Assembly (NCBI GenBank): GCA_965223865.1
Contig: OZ245020.1
Location: 1,632,001 to 1,696,000 of the forward strand
Reading direction: 5' to 3'
Origin: Nitrosarchaeum sp.
GTDB lineage: Archaea > Thermoproteota > Nitrososphaeria > Nitrososphaerales > Nitrosopumilaceae
Length of the DNA stretch: 64,000 nucleotides
Below, piece by piece: positions 49,830-57,517 of this stretch; the first letter of the stretch is position 1; each line of letters begins with the position of its first letter. The notes under the pieces are model-generated. The model did no database searches and was not told the origin of the DNA. It saw nothing but the letters and a program-made list of their open reading frames with translations. The position numbers were made by a program, and so were the translations under genes.

Positions 49830-49924
49830 TGAAAAATTACTGTTAAAATGAGCCTATTAACTTGCCTAATTAGTCAATTTGACACATAGTTAACATAACA
49901 TGTTTGAGAAACAAAAGGGGAAGT

Positions 49925-50860
49925 ATGACAATTAACAGAATAGTCTCTTTTTTGCCTAGCGCCACAGAATTACTGTACGAGCTAGAAGAACAAGACAAAA
50001 TTTATGGTGTCACACATGAGTGTCATTACCCAACAGATGCAAAATCAAAACCTCAAGTCATTTCTTCAGTTATTGATTCTGAAAATTTATCCAGTAAAGA
50101 AATTGATCAAAAAACATGTGAGCTGTTAAACCAAGGAAAAGACATTTTTGTTTTAGATGAAGAAAATCTCAAAAAAGCAGATCCGGATCTAATAATCTCT
50201 CAAAAGACATGCGAAGTTTGTGCTGCATATACAAATCAGGTTAACAAAGCAGTTCAAATTTTACAAAAAAGACCATTACTTTATTCAATGGACCCACACA
50301 ATCTACAAGAAATACTATCCTCTGTAAATGAGCTAGGAAAGATATTGCAAAAAGAAGACAAGGCAAGAGAGATTGTAGAATCTTTGGAAAAAAGAATAAA
50401 GAGAGTCTCAGAAACCAAGAGAGATGTCAAACCCAAAATATTGGCAATAGAATAGATAGAGCCGTTTTTTACTGCAGGTCATTGGATTCCTGAAATTATA
50501 GAGTTAGCTGGGGGTCAAAATATGATTAGCAAAATAGGTGAACATTCTAGAAGATTAAACATGCAAGAAATTATAGAATCAGATCCAGACATCATATTAT
50601 TGATGCCATGTGGTTTTGATACGCAAAGAACCATATCTGAATATAATATTTTAAAAAACAACCAGGAATGGAATTCCTTAAGAGCAGTAAAAGACGGAAA
50701 TGTTTTTGCAGTTGATGCAAATTCTTTTTTTAGTAAGCCTAGCATTAGGACAGTTACTGGCTTGGAGATAATAACAAAAATAATTCATCCAGAAAACATA
50801 GAACTAAAAGTTCCCGAGGAGTCATTTTTACAGATTAGGACAAAATCATTGTCTGAGTAG
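49925..50860 (+). pseudogene. Cobalamin/Fe-chelate ABC substrate-binding protein (BtuF-like) interrupted by an in-frame TAG
   Basis: RIVSFLPSATE, GVTHECHYP, then LAIE-TAG(50453-50455)-IEPFFTAGHW continuing in frame to MPCGF and FFSKPSIR. Confidence 0.85.
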
Positions 50861-51112
50861 ATAAATTTTAAACAAATCTTTGGTTCAAATTTGAATGGGG
50901 TACAACATGTAGGGGAATATAGATAGAGACATACATTTTACACTAAATTTTGTGCCTAAAACAATCAGAAATTGCAACAGGTTTTACTGATTTTTTGGAT
51001 GGAAGATTTTGCACTAAGATTTATTATTGAATTTTTTAGATCTGATGATTGGTTAAAATCCACAGGTACTTGATAATACTTTAGAGATAAATTTCGGTTC
51101 AAGTAGATTTGA

Positions 51113-51619
51113 TTATTTTAAAACTTTGTAGTATAAATCGACTAATTGATCATACTTTACAGTTTTAACAAATTCAAGTTTTGTCTCGTTTTCTATGTTC
51201 TTGAAGAGAGGTTTTCCTTTGCCTAAAATAATTGGAATGACAGATATTATTATCTCATCTATAGCTCCTTGATTAAGAAAAGATGCAATAATTTGTGCTC
51301 CACCAACCAACCAAATGTTTTCTCCTGCATCTGGAAAACCATCTTTTACAAATTTTTCAACATCCAATAAAAATTCAATATTTTCATCTTTATTTTGAGT
51401 AGAACTAGTAAAAACAAATGATTTTTTGTCTTTGTATGGATATTCTCCAAAAGTTAGTACTTGATCATAGGTGGTTTTACCCATAATCACAGTATCTATT
51501 GAGTCATAAAATGCACCATATCCAGATTCAGTAGCGTTTGGTAACCAATCAATTCCATCATTTTCCCTCGCTATGTATCCATCCAAGCTTGATGCGATAT
51601 ACACTAGAACTGTTGTCAC
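51113..51619 (-). CDS. Dihydrofolate reductase / RibD C-terminal family protein
   Basis: YIASSLDGYIA, DWL, IMGKTTY, IWLVGG, IDEIIISVIPIILGKGKPLF. Confidence 0.92.
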   Translation of the reverse strand: MTTVLVYIASSLDGYIARENDGIDWLPNATESGYGAFYDSIDTVIMGKTTYDQVLTFGEYPYKDKKSFVFTSSTQNKDENIEFLLDVEKFVKDGFPDAGENIWLVGGAQIIASFLNQGAIDEIIISVIPIILGKGKPLFKNIENETKLEFVKTVKYDQLVDLYYKVLK

Positions 51620-51723
51620 AAGAGTTGTAATTGTTTCAGAGTTATAATGTTATATTCAACTCAAGATTTTGTACTAAATTTCAATAGGAAAATTAAATCA
51701 TTCTTTATTCTAAAAACTAAAAA

Positions 51724-52371
51724 TTAATTCCAATCATGATCCCACACTTCATCTGGAAAAGATCTATTGCTAATATCAATATCCATATCAATATCCAAAC
51801 TATATTCAATCAAGTCTGGAAATTTACAGTCTGTATCTTTGGGAATAACAATTGACTCATGATGGAACATGTAGTATTGAACACCCTCTTTTTCTGTGAT
51901 TCCTTGGTATTTTAGAACCCCTAACACTTTTGATGAATCAGATTCATAAAAAGACAGATTAGAAAATCTGTCCGACAAATGTATCAAACCACAGTTAACT
52001 ACAAAAGTTTGATTTTTTTCTATTGGTGTAACATACGTAAGATTATCTTGTATTTTTGATTCCATGTTCAGTTTTCCATCTGTTACAAAATAATTAGAAT
52101 TGAAGGTGACCTGAATTGTCCCATCATTGTTTTGCATGATGTGAGTCATTGACGCATAGTATTTTCCATCTCTATCCACTCGATCATAATGAGTGTCCCC
52201 TCCATTTCTAAATCCATCATTTTCTATCATGTATTCAGCATCTTTTAGTACATTTTTGATACTGCGAACATCTAGTGAATCAGTTGAATCATTATCTGAA
52301 TAAATTAAGAAAAATATTCCAGATACTAAACTTCCAATGAGTACAATCAACCCTATTGCAAACTTGTCCAA
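51724..52371 (-). CDS. Membrane-anchored/secreted hypothetical protein
   Basis: N-terminal TM helix (FAIGLIVLIGSLVSGIFFLIY), soluble domain with two Cys. Confidence 0.75.
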   Translation of the reverse strand: MDKFAIGLIVLIGSLVSGIFFLIYSDNDSTDSLDVRSIKNVLKDAEYMIENDGFRNGGDTHYDRVDRDGKYYASMTHIMQNNDGTIQVTFNSNYFVTDGKLNMESKIQDNLTYVTPIEKNQTFVVNCGLIHLSDRFSNLSFYESDSSKVLGVLKYQGITEKEGVQYYMFHHESIVIPKDTDCKFPDLIEYSLDIDMDIDISNRSFPDEVWDHDWN

Positions 52372-52458
52372 ATCTTATCTTCAAAATTTTAAGTGAAGTT
52401 AAATGTGAATCTATAACGGTGCAAATGAGGCTCAAATTTTGCATCAAATCCTAAATTG

Positions 52459-52480
52459 AAGACCAACTAGAGTTGGTCTT
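52459..52480. repeat. Perfect 10-bp inverted repeat
   Basis: AAGACCAACT-AG-AGTTGGTCTT. Confidence 0.8.
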
Positions 52481-52496
52481 ATCAATGAGACAACTA

Positions 52497-52535
52497 CACT
52501 AGGAATCAGCTACAATCTTGGGTATGAAAATGGAC
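52497..52535 (+). repeat. 39-nt intergenic element, copy 1
   Basis: CACTAGGAATCAGCTACAATCTTGGGTATGAAAATGGAC; 33/39 positions match 55174-55211. Confidence 0.8.
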
Positions 52536-52543
52536 GCAATTAA

Positions 52544-52642
52544 TCAAAACAAAATACTTTGATAGAATGCAATAGTGAATGTTGTAATCGCCACACTAAA
52601 CACAAAAATTCCATATGCAGAATATTTGATTATTTTATTCAC
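52544..52642 (-). CDS. Candidate 32-aa single-TM microprotein (not in ORF track)
   Basis: GTG start, MNKIIKYSAYGIFVFSVAITTFTIAFYQSILF; TATA-like CTTAAATA ~25 nt upstream. Confidence 0.5.
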   Translation of the reverse strand: MNKIIKYSAYGIFVFSVAITTFTIAFYQSILF

Positions 52643-52777
52643 AGTATTAATTCACATTCAGAATATTTAAGGGCAATTTTGTAGAGACTAATCTTTTTTA
52701 GAGAATATGTTGGTTCACTGTAAAAATTGAGAGATTATCAATTTAAAAAATAATAATATCAATTACAATAAAAAATT

Positions 52778-53095
52778 GTGACAATATATTCAGTTAAAGC
52801 TAGATACATTGAAGAAAAGATGAAGGAATTTTATCAGAAACTAACTGATGGTACAATTCAGAACCAGAAACCTGATGGGCAGGAGATAATTAATTCAATG
52901 AAACGTGCTAAAATAACTGAACATGATGTAATTCAATGGTCTGAGATGTGTTTTTGTTCCCCTCCATTAAAACATGAACGTGAAACTGTGTACAATCAAT
53001 TTCTAACAGACATGGAAATTACAGTCATTGATGATTATGTAGAGTATGAGGGAGAATTGTTTATGGATTTTTTAGCAAAACAAAGTAAAGAATAA
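52778..53095 (+). CDS. Hypothetical protein
   Basis: 105 aa; LTDGTIQNQKPDG and WSEMCFCSPPLKHER look like conserved-type motifs. Confidence 0.75.
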   Translation: MTIYSVKARYIEEKMKEFYQKLTDGTIQNQKPDGQEIINSMKRAKITEHDVIQWSEMCFCSPPLKHERETVYNQFLTDMEITVIDDYVEYEGELFMDFLAKQSKE

Positions 53096-53101
53096 TTCAA
53101 A

Positions 53102-53337
53102 TCATGGGAATCTGTTCTTTATCCACTTACATGAATTTTCGTCAATGGTATGAGTACCATTATCATAGATATACAATGACAAAGAACCACTTCGCTCAAA
53201 GCCCATTGCACAGTTGTACAAAATTATTCCCAAATGATCTGCTGTCTGTGCAACGTAAAAGGAATAATTATTGTGATTAGAACAATTGTAGTTATCAGAA
53301 CTATCGCAATCAAAATAACAAAATTTCTAGTTTTCAT
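53102..53337 (-). pseudogene. Frameshifted MKTR-leader secreted protein
   Basis: MKTRNFVILIAIVLITTIVLITIIIPFTLHRQQIIWE* (stop 53224-53226). Another frame continues YNCAMGFERSGSLSLYIYDNGTHTIDENSCKWIKNRFP* to 53102. Confidence 0.6.
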
Positions 53338-53975
53338 TTTCTTCTCCAGTATAATGTCAAACCAATTCCTGAACCTGCATCTATTACTATTGCACTAATT
53401 ATTATCGGCAAAGTAAAGCTATACTCGTTAAAAATTCCAATACCTGAACCAAAACCCATGCTTTCTTCTGCTAGAAACCTTTTCTCAGATGCTAGTCTCA
53501 ATGATTCGTCATCAGAATACGGATCATGTGGAACAATGATTTTTTCTTCTTGAGGATCTTCATCTAGTAATGTTTGACTTCCAATTACTCTGGTAGAACA
53601 CATGTTAGTTTGACCTACAGAATTTTGTTCAGTAATGCCCCAGCCAAACACTTGATAGGTATTTCCTTTACTATAATTAGGATCACAAGAATTAAGCATT
53701 CTAGTTTCATTTTCACTAAAGTAGAGATTTACATTTGTCATAACAAAATATCCTTCTTTCAAATCTCCTTTCTGAACAGAATGTATCATAAAATGCACTT
53801 TTTGAAAATCTGAACCATCTTCTGTTTTGATCACGGTTCCTTGAAATGCCGTATCTGCATTTGCTAATGTCTCAAAGTAATCAGGATTTGCAGCACAAGA
53901 ACATGCAAAAGATTCTTGATATACTAAAGTCGATATAAGTAAAACAGATACAAATATGAATAATCTAGTTTTCAT
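53334..53975 (-). CDS. Secreted surface protein with CSC N-terminus (TIMP/NTR-like) and C-terminal membrane anchor
   Basis: MKTR signal peptide ending ESFA, mature CSCA...ADTAFQGTV...SC...YQVF...MCS; hydrophobic tail ending WRRK. Confidence 0.75.
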   Translation of the reverse strand: MKTRLFIFVSVLLISTLVYQESFACSCAANPDYFETLANADTAFQGTVIKTEDGSDFQKVHFMIHSVQKGDLKEGYFVMTNVNLYFSENETRMLNSCDPNYSKGNTYQVFGWGITEQNSVGQTNMCSTRVIGSQTLLDEDPQEEKIIVPHDPYSDDESLRLASEKRFLAEESMGFGSGIGIFNEYSFTLPIIISAIVIDAGSGIGLTLYWRRK

Positions 53976-54925
53976 TTTCTCTTCTCAATTAATTCTAATA
54001 ATTCCTCAGGCAGACTGTCATACTGTTTTTCATATTGTTTAATCATGTCTTGGGTACTTTGATCATCAAAGTAACCATGAACCATTTTCCCAACAATATT
54101 TCCCAAGTCTCCTTGTTTGTTCATCTCTGAGAAAAACTTCCATTGGGATTCTGGATCGACAATACCAGTCATTGATTCTCTTTCTAACTGTCTGCGTTTT
54201 TCATTCAATGTTTGAGAGTAATCATAAATAGATTGACGCCATGGATCTAGTACTATCTTGCAAAATTCCCCATTGGAATAGTTGGATATAATATCGTCAT
54301 AGTTGTGTGTTGCAAATCTATAGTCGGTATCACCATCAAAACAATGTAAAAATAATGATTCTTTGTCTGTTATTTCATGGGTGCATGAACTTAGATGAAA
54401 GTATGTTGATGCACTCTGATTTTTACTATTTATTGCAAACAATCCATAATGGATATTGGATTGATGACTTCTTTCATCTTGAATGGATAATTCAAGATTG
54501 TATGGAGCATATTTTTTTGTAAATATTTTATAATTTTCAGTCTGTGAGAGTTTTTTCATGTGCAGAGGGATCATCCTCTCAAAATCACATACGGATGATG
54601 GTTCTAAATCAAATCGTTCTGCCCAATGAGTGCTATTTTGGAATGGATAGTACCCTTCAAGTAACTTTACATGTTCAATTTCTAATCCCAGATAATCTGA
54701 AGAAATTTCTTTTAATTTTTCTTGCATTTGTTTTTTTGATTCATCAAATTTTTGTTCATTTCCTATCAATTGGTATTTTTTTGATAATTCATTAATTTGA
54801 ACTAGTTCGTTAGAATGCTTTTCAAATGATATTGATTTTGGAGAATCAGGATTTTGATAAATAAGAAATAAAGTAGAAGATACAAGGAACGTCATTATGA
54901 CAATTATTTTAAATTCAATTTTCAT
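53972..54925 (-). CDS. Membrane-anchored/secreted hypothetical protein
   Basis: Likely start MKIEFKIIVIMTFLVSSTLFLIY at 54925; four Cys; ends EKRK overlapping the next ATG. Confidence 0.75.
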   Translation of the reverse strand: MKIEFKIIVIMTFLVSSTLFLIYQNPDSPKSISFEKHSNELVQINELSKKYQLIGNEQKFDESKKQMQEKLKEISSDYLGLEIEHVKLLEGYYPFQNSTHWAERFDLEPSSVCDFERMIPLHMKKLSQTENYKIFTKKYAPYNLELSIQDERSHQSNIHYGLFAINSKNQSASTYFHLSSCTHEITDKESLFLHCFDGDTDYRFATHNYDDIISNYSNGEFCKIVLDPWRQSIYDYSQTLNEKRRQLERESMTGIVDPESQWKFFSEMNKQGDLGNIVGKMVHGYFDDQSTQDMIKQYEKQYDSLPEELLELIEKRK

Positions 54926-55082
54926 TTCCATGTTTTCCATAACAATCATCTGGCGACGCAACCTTTGTTACAATCTCCAAGTCATATTGAGGAATATCAA
55001 TAATTATTGAATCAACATATGCATAAGCAACTCCAGTAGAGAAAACTGAAGAAAAAAGTACAAGGAGCAGAGGAATTTTCAA
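54915..55082 (-). CDS. 55-aa signal-peptide ORF, probably truncated (not in ORF track)
   Basis: TTG start, MKIPLLLVLFSSVFSTGVAYA-YVDSIIIDIPQYDLEIVTKVASPDDCYGKHGNEN*; AxA cleavage motif; TTTATGAA TATA-like box upstream. Confidence 0.55.
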   Translation of the reverse strand: MKIPLLLVLFSSVFSTGVAYAYVDSIIIDIPQYDLEIVTKVASPDDCYGKHGNEN

Positions 55083-55173
55083 ACAATGTGACTCAATTTA
55101 GGATATTCATAAAGTGTTCTGATGTTTGTTCTGTTAAAAAGACGGTTAGTTCAAGACTCTACAAGTTAAACCC

Positions 55174-55211
55174 CACTAGGAATCAACTACAATTCGAGTA
55201 TCAAAAGGGAC
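55174..55211 (+). repeat. 38-nt intergenic element, copy 2
   Basis: CACTAGGAATCAACTACAATTCGAGTATCAAAAGGGAC, same orientation as 52497-52535. Confidence 0.8.
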
Positions 55212-55291
55212 AGAAATAAGATAAAAATCAATTTTGATAAAAATAAGAATATGTTAAAAGAGTAAAAGATATAATTTTGTCAATGGTTTTG

Positions 55292-55748
55292 ATGAAAACT
55301 TTCCTTATCGGACTGTCTGTTTGTTTGCCTATTGCAGTAACATCAGAAGTTTTTGCAGAGACCATCATTCCATATAGAGGAATATTTGAGTGTGGGAGAT
55401 TCCAGATATTTTACTGATATTGGAAGGTTTTTAGTTTTTGAGGATATTGTGACTGGTAATGGAGAAGTAATTTGGGTTCCAGATTAAGGTGATGGCACAG
55501 GAGGTTATGAAATTAGTCGTTATACAATTTCTGACGATATTGGAAACAGTATTTCTTTTGAAGCTAAAGAAATATTTTATCAGGAATATGCTAATCATAA
55601 ATTTACCGTTGGACAATATGAGTGGAAAATTCTTAATGGTACAGGCAAGTTTGTAGGAGCTACCGGTCAAGGAATGGATCGTGTATGGTACAAATTATCT
55701 GATATGTCATATAGAGGAATTTCGTCAGGAAGTATTATTCTTGAATAA
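55292..55748 (+). pseudogene. Decayed secreted beta-barrel protein (allene-oxide-cyclase/dirigent-like motif)
   Basis: MKTFLIGLSVCLPIAVTSEVFA signal peptide, frameshift near 55400, in-frame TAA near 55485, then ...WKILNGTGKFVGATGQG...GSIILE*. Confidence 0.65.
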
Positions 55749-56018
55749 TTCTCTTAGCAATCCAAGATTTACTTAAAGACGATCCGAATCTTTAAATTCA
55801 AACTTTTTCTGGGAAATAATTTTTGCTCGATCCGCTTTAGGGACTTACCATATTATTCATATAATGAAATCTTGTCAATACTTTATTGTAGATTTTAGTT
55901 TTCTTGTTTTGTTGCAAATTCTTTTTGAGATACCAATGTATACTTATTAATTCCCAATCTCTTTCTTTCCCCCTAATAATCATGTTCATGATTTTTCTTG
56001 ATTTCGTCTAAGGTTCAC

Positions 56019-56456
56019 TTACTCTATTCCCTTGGTAATGAGGACAGGGCATTTTGCATGTCCTATTACATTACTTGCAACACTTCCCAAGACAATCTTT
56101 CTAAAACCTGTTCTGCCATGAGACCCCATAACTATCAAATCAACATTGTTGTTGTCTGCATAAGATACAATACCATCAGCCGATGATGGATTGTGGATTA
56201 CTTTTATTGACAATTGAATATTTTTGGACTTTGCCTTTTCTTCTAGATTTTTAAGCATTGCAGTAGCATCTTCAATCTGTTCATCTTGCATTTCTCCAAG
56301 TCGTTCAATGGAAACTCCAGAAGAATCTCCTAATTTTGCCTGCAAGACAGTTAACGCTGTCAGTTTTGAATCGAATTTCGAGGTTATCTCCAATGCCTTT
56401 TCAAATGCCTTTTCTGAGTATTTAGAACCATCAAACGGGACTAGAATATTTTTCAA
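56019..56456 (-). CDS. Universal stress protein (UspA family)
   Basis: ILVPFDGSKYS, DLIVMGSHGRTG, LGSVA, AKCPVLI. Confidence 0.95.
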   Translation of the reverse strand: MKNILVPFDGSKYSEKAFEKALEITSKFDSKLTALTVLQAKLGDSSGVSIERLGEMQDEQIEDATAMLKNLEEKAKSKNIQLSIKVIHNPSSADGIVSYADNNNVDLIVMGSHGRTGFRKIVLGSVASNVIGHAKCPVLITKGIE

Positions 56457-56726
56457 TACGTGGTTGTTTATTTTTTTGAATTTATATCCTTTGAATAATT
56501 TTTTCCTACCTATCTGATTTTTTTTGTTAAAATTTCACCATGATTTTTTTAAAATACTAATACTTTACTCATGAGAGACCAAATTCTACATTTTTTTAAA
56601 ATTATCAAATAGATTTTTTTATTTTGATGAGACATGGCCTGTCATTGCCGAGGATTTTAGAATTAAAATCATTATACAACTACAATGTTCAGGTCTAGTT
56701 GCTCTAGATTTTGGGAATAAGAGAGT

Positions 56727-57191
56727 TTATGCAGATTCTGAGATGTCATCTTGTAAGTTGACTACCTTGAATATTTTGACAACGTAATCCCCTTCAAAAA
56801 AGTTTGTTACTTCTCCAGTGTCCATATTCACATCTCTTACCCGGAACTTGTATTCGTAAGAACCGTTATCTTCCACATCAACTTGGGCAACATGTATTGG
56901 GTCATCCCCATTTTCTTCATTGAAGAATTGTATAATGACAGGATAGTCTTGTGCATGATTATCTATTTTGCCTTCAACATACGCCCAAGGCAGAGTATTG
57001 TCCTTTGGAATGTTTAGCAGCATGGTTGTCTTTTCAATACTAGTATCATCACTGTGTGGAATAACTGTGGTTTCTGCAGTTTGAGATTGTGGTTCTGCAA
57101 GAGAGTTTGGCATTACTGCGACTGTAAAGAGCACTCCAACTGAAAACAATCCCATAATTAGAACTGTGTTTCTTGAAATTCCACTTTTCAT
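56727..57191 (-). CDS. Secreted hypothetical protein (Ig-like beta domain)
   Basis: Signal peptide, then YVEGKI, PVIIQF, HVAQVDV...GSYEYKFRV, EGDYVVKIFK. Confidence 0.75.
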   Translation of the reverse strand: MKSGISRNTVLIMGLFSVGVLFTVAVMPNSLAEPQSQTAETTVIPHSDDTSIEKTTMLLNIPKDNTLPWAYVEGKIDNHAQDYPVIIQFFNEENGDDPIHVAQVDVEDNGSYEYKFRVRDVNMDTGEVTNFFEGDYVVKIFKVVNLQDDISESA

Positions 57192-57517
57192 GAGGTTTTT
57201 CCTTTTTTGTGTTTTAAAAGAATTGCTCCAAATTTACACCTAATAGAAGGATAATTTCCAGAAACTAAGAGAGCATTCCAAGTGTGTTCATATAAGATAT
57301 TAAAAGAATCGTTTGTCCCAATAAAGCCACCGGGGCGCTCATCAAGTTTTATCGAACCTAGATTATTTTGAATATCTAAAATAGTATTTGGGATATTTGA
57401 CATGTAATTTCCAAGCAGAATAAATGGAGCAAATACTAGACCTGTTCCTGCTGCGCCAATCATCTTCAAAAAATCGCGTCTAGAGAGTTCATTATTTCTC
57501 TCTTGTTTTTTAGTCTA
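57188..57517 (-). pseudogene. Remnant of a twin-arginine (Tat) exported protein
   Basis: In-frame upstream of the tracked ORF reads TAG-TKKQERNNELSRRDFLKMIGAAGTGLVFAPF. This is a canonical SRRxFLK with no start codon ahead of it, and the product is short. Confidence 0.6.

Follow-up and report, generated by a model that had tools for sequence, protein, structure and literature searches.

Integration at tRNA ends is a known kind of system. Passages of Krupovic et al. (2019, PMC6563490) give thaumarchaeal attachment (att) sites a median length of 17 bp and place 39 of 68 of them within tRNA genes; repeated use of one site builds arrays, and thaumarchaeal casposons that have inverted repeats and duplications are described there as well. 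Here we analysed a 64,000-nucleotide (nt) stretch of Nitrosarchaeum sp. DNA (the window), in which a first-pass annotation had proposed an integron-like island of single-gene cassettes punctuated by two repeat types, L and R. The genome under study is G000, with main contig C1 (1.99 Mb), and its closest relative is G004; unmarked coordinates are window positions, and those marked C1 refer to the main contig. The L repeat does not stand alone as a site: it is the closing part of a larger element of tRNA-end origin, overlooked by the first-pass annotation, which we call the junction element. Its copies form a family that is linked to tRNA genes, accompanied by direct and inverted repeats, found at occupied and empty sites, and associated with breaks in synteny. 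On balance we lean towards reading L as the innermost box of this element and the island as an insertion and replacement hot spot on a decayed attachment site, where recombination at L adds or removes single genes.

Elements of this family bound small gene units in other genomes, and these units resemble the cryptic integrated elements (CIEs) of thaumarchaea in their insertion at tRNA 3' ends, their short direct att repeats (17 bp median in CIEs versus 17–22 nt here), their arrays formed by site re-use and their accessory cargo, but they lack the integrase that defines the CIE class in passages of PMC6563490. G000 itself holds two classical CIE examples, at tRNA-Glu and tRNA-Ser. The units described here also differ in size, being as small as 1–3.7 kb, in ending in inverted modules of two boxes (A and L) common to eight genera and several tRNA targets, and in having decayed copies dispersed at non-tRNA sites (19 in G000). 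The same passages of PMC6563490 contain no mention of the A–L module, and a literature search returned no description of the element, although att tables in paper supplements may bear on the point (PMC6563490, PMC2958812). Within those sources as consulted, we met no description of the conserved inverted A–L module, the recombinase-less units or the decayed copies dispersed at rearrangement points.

Integrons and clusters of attC sites lacking integron integrases (CALINs) share with this locus the splitting of single genes by a repeated boundary sequence, a content that varies between close relatives, and an enzyme that, if any, acts in trans. The integron analogy is partly supported for the cassette-like pattern but not for the mechanism: neither IntI nor another integrase adjoins the array, the 11–15-nt box is non-palindromic and has no attC-like fold, and the genes lie in both orientations, with their own upstream regions, on a platform that comes from a tRNA end.

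The junction element and its link to tRNA genes

The element was reached through a BLAST search of the region against 40 relatives, which gave short matches to 50871–50940 in several contigs of G006 and G001. In the window it was matched by nhmmer at 50875–50975 (E 3.7e-18) and by a sequence-only covariance model (model R1) at C1 1682882–1682943. The full plan, about 75 nt long, starts with a tRNA 3' end, either real or decayed; after a spacer of 10–14 nt comes box A (GGGGATATAGTTAG), and a further 7 nt separate it from box L (AGATTTTGCAC-TA). In its expanded form the element is GGTTCAAATTTGAWTGGGAGCACAACRTGYATGGGGATATAGTTAG-N14-ACCCACGTGGAA; the window copy, three more in G000 and several in G004 have a different ending, AAGATTTTGCAC, which is the L box. 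Within G000, nhmmer gave 17 element matches at E < 0.001, and BLAST gave 26 in G004 (E up to 1). Model R1 matched 19 times in G000, 26 times in G004, 11 times in G006 and 6 times in G001; a weak single match was found in 13 of 147 other genomes of the family, and 17 of 151 genomes were matched overall.

A strict A–L pattern (ATATAGTYRR-N5-8-GATTTTRCAC) was present in 60 of 401 Nitrosopumilaceae genomes, belonging to 8 of 27 genera, whereas the reversed pattern, used as a control, gave 0 matches in all 401. Three of the 60 genomes are unpublished and their sequences are unused here; without these three the count is 57 of 398. Alignment of 25 copies of the family (the window's and 24 from other genomes) demonstrated invariant columns GG.ATATAG ... 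ATTTT.CAC, with conservation ending right after GATTTTGCAC-TA. This edge indicates that CACTA is the true end of the conserved unit, in agreement with the boundary role given to it earlier. The sequence 3' of CACTA in 30 strict copies is A/T-rich, unrelated and unlike R. No consensus fold emerged from 17 aligned element copies, and Rfam 15 gave 0 matches at E up to 1 for the island together with eight related loci (9 loci, 20,861 bases).

The genomic context of the strict pattern, surveyed for 30 copies in 29 loci, connects the element to tRNA genes. A real tRNA gene lies 11–14 nt upstream in 5 of the 30 copies (Glu-CTC twice, Leu-GAG, Ser twice), a T-loop-like GGTTCRAAT lies within 50 nt upstream in 20, and by sequence inspection about 6 more copies form head-to-head pairs (reverse module, spacer, module). 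In other genera, model R1 matched the 3' ends of real tRNA genes; three genomes showed this at tRNA-Glu(CTC) and one at tRNA-Leu(GAG). The first part of the element is a decayed T-loop and acceptor strand, and inspection places its closest likeness at the end of tRNA-Glu(CTC), including the GGGAGCA acceptor strand.

Several genomes contain gene units bounded by inverted modules. A 2.5-kb insert in the tRNA-Leu(GAG) 3' end of G003 carries a NERD-domain gene and two unknown genes; its flanks form a 17-nt exact direct repeat, and its inverted A–L modules match at about 40 of 44 aligned positions. The empty counterpart is present in G000 at C1 39362–39373, where a translin gene stands beside the tRNA. 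The G270 example measures about 1 kb, has inverted modules and is flanked by an exact direct repeat of 31 nt, 22 of which come from the tRNA-Ser end and trailer; a further module follows. In both genomes, then, the insert lies between direct repeats of the tRNA 3' end, as in att sites, and for G003 a relative also has the empty site. Other inverted module pairs enclose a serpin gene in G128, a trio of small genes in G137 that has a solo L inside it, a five-gene pirin/HxlR/Rieske/cupin set (G270; Rieske/FMN reductase) and a TrkH-CBS gene (G389). Inverted modules combined with tRNA-end direct repeats are the layout of an integrated mobile element with attachment sites.

Further copies in G000 include head-to-head modules with CCACGTGG tails and a 14-nt spacer between them (C1 1066999–1067100), and a solo tail (TATA-like box plus ACCCACGTGGAA) at C1 1068579, 1.5 kb from that pair and beyond a 441-amino-acid (aa) gene. 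A 415-aa gene that recurs close to several copies of the element was at first suspected to be a transposase but was identified as a Na+/H+ exchanger. G000 has four Na+/H+ exchanger paralogues (C1 775818–777065, 486222–487460, ~849481–850804 and 129549–130756), three of them no more than about 3 kb from an element copy. A metagenome scan with a degenerate L pattern yielded 117 stretches, and 2 of the 80 fetched had a BLAST match to G000, which is the sole evidence that these two are thaumarchaeal; the other 78 were taken as chance finds in unrelated samples. A scan of viral contigs with an A-N7-L pattern gave 3 matches, all in one coding sequence of one virus type, and these were likewise set aside as chance.

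Gene-sized indels, synteny breaks and candidate enzymes

Comparison with G004 showed the island to be strain-variable, in support of the first-pass annotation. G004 shares window 49900–50922 (91%) and 56014–56500 (92%) and holds 10.8 kb of other genes between these flanks; homology stops at 50922–50944 and restarts at 56014. An element is present in G004 at the same site after the BtuF-like gene, and the two genomes diverge in its tail, where ...ACAC is followed by CCACGTGG in G004 versus TAAATTTTG in G000. In four DNA runs (X1–X4), a more abundant G004-like strain departs from the window sequence at 50894 and returns at 56017. Both island variants co-occur in one habitat, as judged from these runs over window 49900–57400.

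Within the island, the DHFR-like gene lies between L1/L2 and L3 (Table 1), and at locus L014 of G004 the element with its L box runs straight into the 215-aa gene's flank. Homology to this locus, covering element, L and 215-aa flank at 87%, begins at 51663. At locus L015 of G006, homology over a DHFR fragment and its upstream region (91%) ends at 51671, inside L, where a third partner is joined. A second occupied site lies 480 kb from the DHFR-like indel, at C1 1200641, and consists of element and L, a PNPOx gene and a second L (TTTAGATTTTACAC, followed by TAG); locus L054 of G004 has one L and no PNPOx gene. These junctions indicate that the same 11–13-nt box was the junction in independent events. 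The placement of L at the edges of gene-sized indels, suggested by the first-pass annotation, was thereby upheld, with L014 as the empty site for the DHFR-like gene and L054 for PNPOx.

At the genome scale, of 20 element loci in G004, 0 had both flanks colinear in G000, versus 26 of 40 random G004 loci (hypergeometric ~3e-7 by hand calculation, the loci not being independent). The two flanks of one G004 element often adjoin different G000 copies. Synteny breaks fall at the element tail, at its 5' edge or in its interior.

These observations suggest a mechanism in several steps. A–L modules would be the two inverted ends of small recombinase-less gene units inserted at tRNA 3' ends. The island begins just downstream of the BtuF-like gene, at an element of this kind. 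Past the CACTA of that element, everything differs among G000, G004 and the co-occurring strain, and because of this variation we read the island as an insertion and replacement hot spot anchored on an attachment-site relic. L2–L4 would be solo L boxes left between successive gene-sized pieces, and recombination between L boxes may add or remove single genes, the DHFR-like gene here and PNPOx elsewhere in the genome. L would then serve as the crossover point, beyond being a mere conserved arm, and the direction of each event is likewise putative. The recombinase would act in trans and would most likely be a tyrosine integrase of the tRNA-Glu/tRNA-Ser kind.

The window contains no recombinase of the families searched, as had been noted before. 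PF00589 has four matches in G000, none of them in the window and the nearest about 4 kb before the window start, some 55 kb from the island; it was also absent from the scanned island open reading frames (ORFs). Two full-size tyrosine integrases are encoded in G000, one right after tRNA-Glu(CTC) and one after tRNA-Ser(CGA). The former, of 373 aa (C1 1856363–1857484), belongs to a classical integrated element of about 47 kb (C1 1856140–1903350), and the last 20 nt of tRNA-Glu(CTC) recur exactly as an att repeat 47 kb away, at C1 1903331. The latter, of 442 aa (C1 1627160–1628488), starts 9 nt after tRNA-Ser(CGA); this region (C1 1627160–1628580), 3.5 kb short of the window start, probably terminates a further integrated element that may extend toward the window. 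The proposed correlation between motif and recombinase turned out loose and not decisive: integrase paralogues are present in G004, match weakly in G006 and were not found in G001, G003 or G005. No Y1 HUH transposase, TnpB or Cas1 gene was found in G000.

Repeats and genes of the island

All L and R motifs listed by the first-pass annotation were found at their positions on the plus strand (Table 1). The 11-mer consensus AGATTTTGCAC was taken from copies in other genera and is hence independent of the window. At up to one mismatch it has 2 matches on the island plus strand versus 0.14 expected (Poisson P 0.009), and at up to two mismatches 4 matches in island non-coding DNA versus 0.73 expected (P 0.007) and 5 on the whole island plus strand versus 2.1 expected (P 0.06). 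L2 is one of five exact AGATTTTGCAC sites in the main contig. The 12-mer ATTTTGYACTAA has 10 window matches at up to one mismatch versus 2.2 expected, a number reached in 0 of 100 shuffles. The exact 15-mer AAGATTTTGYACTAA has two sites in the 1.99-Mb contig, and they flank the RibD_C/DHFR-like gene. As lone 11-mers, L1 and L4 are within chance, and L1 is counted as real because of its context inside the junction element.

Table 1. Repeats, genes and borders of the variable island, in window coordinates.
Feature	Sequence	Position	Strand	Remarks
BtuF-like periplasmic binding protein gene		49904..50860	+	conserved left flank; Pfam PF01497 (Peripla_BP_2) on both pieces
Junction element copy	decayed tRNA 3' end GGTTCAAATTTGAATGGGG; box A GGGAATATAGATAG	50882..50946	+	decayed tRNA 3' end from 50882; box A 50913-50926; box L1 50935-50946
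L1	ATTTTACACTAA	50935-50946	+	final box of junction element; left island border
Strain-variable island		50947..56014		from element to usp stop codon
L2	AAGATTTTGCACTAA	51003-51017	+	solo L box, box A absent upstream; 3' side of DHFR-like gene
RibD_C/DHFR-like gene		51113..51619	-	between L2 and L3; PF01872 7.7e-16, PF00186 2.4e-6
L3	AAGATTTTGTACTAA	51663-51677	+	AT-rich TATA-like stretch upstream; joins DHFR-like module to 3' flank of 215-aa gene
215-aa gene, no known family		51724..52371	-	between L3 and L4; 3' end and flank common to locus L014 of G004
L4	CTCAAATTTTGCATCAAA	52431-52448	+	degenerate L-like, 2 mismatches to 11-mer consensus; weakest copy
Repeat R1		52492..52564, core 52497-52536	+	local repeat
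Repeat R2		55169..55239, core 55174-55212	+	second and only other R copy in genome
Universal stress protein (usp) gene		56019..56456	-	conserved right flank; Pfam PF00582 3.4e-34; 92% identity to G004

Repeat R behaves differently. Its 20-mer has two matches at up to three mismatches versus 0.02 expected, the only copies in the whole genome, and the likeness of R1 and R2 spans about 70 nt (local score 79 versus a shuffle mean of 33.5; standard deviation 5.6, maximum 55, n=200). BLAST found no match to R in 40 relatives, and a 19-mer derived from it occurs once among 185,579 species genomes, in a Nitrosotalea intergenic region. We read R as a putative local duplication of an upstream region, separate from L and its element. 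The first 20 nt of R weakly resemble sites of the form CACTAGGCATCNTAGAC at C1 152682 and 478548, which lie immediately 5' of TATA-like boxes; this is a lead only. In a CACTAG-type example at C1 1441720 the box precedes a TATA box, a geometry unlike that of L. Between L4 and R1, at 52460–52479, lies a perfect 8-bp hairpin (AGACCAAC TAGA GTTGGTCT), a diverged version of which was found in a related strain within the sequencing runs.

The gene content was as previously described: Pfam recognised RibD_C/DHFR_1, a split Peripla_BP_2 and Usp, and the seven other submitted ORFs of the region had no Pfam family. Genes occupy both strands of the island, the DHFR-like and 215-aa genes being antisense to the L boxes. 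Other DHFR-like homologues (locus L022 of G004 and a G000 paralogue) have flanks without L boxes. The BtuF-like gene is split by an in-frame stop after 50455 (window 50453–50524), is a single frame in 8 relatives, and may be a pseudogene in this genome. The 215-aa gene has a partial paralogue at C1 1030839–1031030, and the 329-aa gene (window 53972–54961) a full one with 71% DNA identity; these paralogues lie side by side at C1 1030263–1031990, about 650 kb away, in a cluster that is present in G004 too. A 105-aa ORF without a Pfam family (52778–53095) has 75–85% DNA identity in G006, G016, G008 and G001 and, judged by this conservation, is likely a real gene moving between contexts. The secreted-protein gene at 55277–55748 is broken into several frames, and an intact-looking paralogue is found at C1 117546–117884.

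Competing explanations and meaning for the family

Several points weigh against our reading of the island. Deletion between two existing direct L boxes would give the same occupied and empty picture, with no need for an enzyme. L2–L4 are direct rather than inverted repeats, thus unlike the architecture of the units, and a second process, recombination at L, is required to explain them. The right end of the island has neither an inverted module nor a direct repeat; a box-A-like match at 56018, at the end of usp, was rejected, as it lies inside the usp coding sequence and 3 such matches are expected by chance. No unit contains a recombinase, PF00589 being absent from all ORFs of the seven unit loci scanned; no integrase adjoins any module, and integrase presence tracks element number only loosely. 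No circular or excised form was seen, in data that comprise contigs of the four DNA runs with no joints reported and are uninformative on excision. The colinearity control uses an ad hoc criterion, and variable regions may simply gather repeats. Finally, the module has promoter-like geometry, and promoter and junction roles may coexist.

This last point leads to the explanation that the A–L module is primarily a promoter, which we regard as rather unlikely. Box A would be a TATA box and box L the promoter-proximal or initiator region, with a start at about CAC/TA; accessory genes would share a portable promoter, conservation would end at the transcript start, and repeated promoters would recombine passively, and these two causes alone would place breakpoints at L. 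The geometry fits: box A stands about 25 nt from CAC/TA, and TATA-like 6-mers peak at -32 to -29 before G000 ORF starts. Some copies also lie just before genes. In G003 a module-like copy has its GCACT only 1–2 nt before the ATG of the NERD gene, L boxes precede the starts of two G137 genes by about 22 and 38 nt, the first gene of bracketed units starts about 70–145 nt after one module, the PNPOx ORF starts 62 nt after L, and L lies about 50 nt before a co-oriented gene in two metagenome contigs. Head-to-head module pairs resemble divergent promoters, and mobile-element ends often carry promoters. The survey of the 30 strict copies tells against it, however: a co-oriented ORF starts within 40 nt of none of them, within 100 nt of 4 (mirrored control 1) and within 250 nt of 11, with no excess over the mirrored control (11). 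Of 16 G000 copies classified by inspection, 7 are co-oriented and 8 face the 3' ends of convergent genes, as do L1 and L3. Moreover, tRNA adjacency and direct repeats are not promoter properties, and this explanation leaves the fixed distance of 11–14 nt from four different tRNA genes and the tRNA-end direct repeats unaccounted for.

A second alternative is that the units are non-autonomous transposons with terminal inverted repeats and target-site duplications, moved by a casposase or a DDE transposase; we consider this improbable. Nitrosopumilus is known to harbour casposons, some of them directed to tRNA ends. Like miniature inverted-repeat and casposon-like elements, the units have inverted terminal modules and flanking direct repeats of 17–22 nt, carry small cargo with no enzyme inside, occur in multiple copies and are patchy within a genus; Cas1 homologues (PF01867) are present in G270, G128 and G003. 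Unlike those elements, however, they carry whole genes and target tRNA ends, and G000 has no matching transposase or casposase. The Cas1 genes lie away from modules, those of G128 on other contigs, and Cas1 is absent from G000, with 19 element copies, and from G401, with 5 modules. Y1 and TnpB genes are lacking, and the lone DDE fragment, found once in G085, is not at a unit end. The 17–22-nt repeats also exceed the 14–15 bp of casposon target duplications. Inverted modules with 17–22-nt repeats that overlap the tRNA end fit att sites equally.

The original proposal, that L and R are two arms of one site with a CACTA core, separated by repeated cassette insertion as in an integron, appears very improbable. 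L boxes do bracket single genes, conservation of the element does end at CACTA, R begins with CACTAGG, and a module in G403 continues as CACTAAGAATCC, which matches R at 10 of 12 positions (hand count). None of the 30 copies, however, forms a joined L-CACTA-R site; R, with its two copies and no match in the 40 relatives, is never joined to L, and no attC-type consensus fold was found. Non-coding DNA, 22% of the contig, holds 20 of 119 CACTAGG sites and so shows no enrichment. With CACTA occurring about once per 1.5 kb per strand, and the R copies sharing it as mutual copies, its presence in both L and R is weak evidence.

Chance AT-rich similarity of the island L copies, with indels that are ordinary deletions between random microhomologies, is hardly credible: L1 and L4 alone and the whole-island count are compatible with it, but two independent indels use the same 11–13-nt box beside the same element family, AAGATTTTGYACTAA is unique to the DHFR-like locus, and the box is invariant across eight genera.

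The reading of L as the innermost box of a tRNA-end-derived junction element also permits a broader and more doubtful suggestion, which we put forward tentatively: a family-wide mode of gene swapping in Nitrosopumilaceae without a resident recombinase, in which tRNA-end junction elements would be docking and exchange points for an enzyme acting in trans and, in some species, decayed elements would mark most rearrangement points. If so, single genes and small operons (nucleases, a serpin, transporters, redox enzymes) would be inserted, replaced and shuffled at the elements, and decayed elements would have spread through the chromosome in some species (19–26 copies, G000 and G004). If the module is mainly a promoter, it would be a strikingly conserved portable one, marking horizontally moved genes.

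Among marine ammonia-oxidising archaea, accessory genes differ strongly despite small genomes that hold few classical mobile elements. The junction element was found in 8 of the 27 genera sampled and coincided with every synteny break examined between two species; it would give a sequence-defined handle on this gene gain and loss. Any genome or metagenome can be screened for it, it predicts the sites of strain-variable genes, and its mechanism thereby becomes testable.

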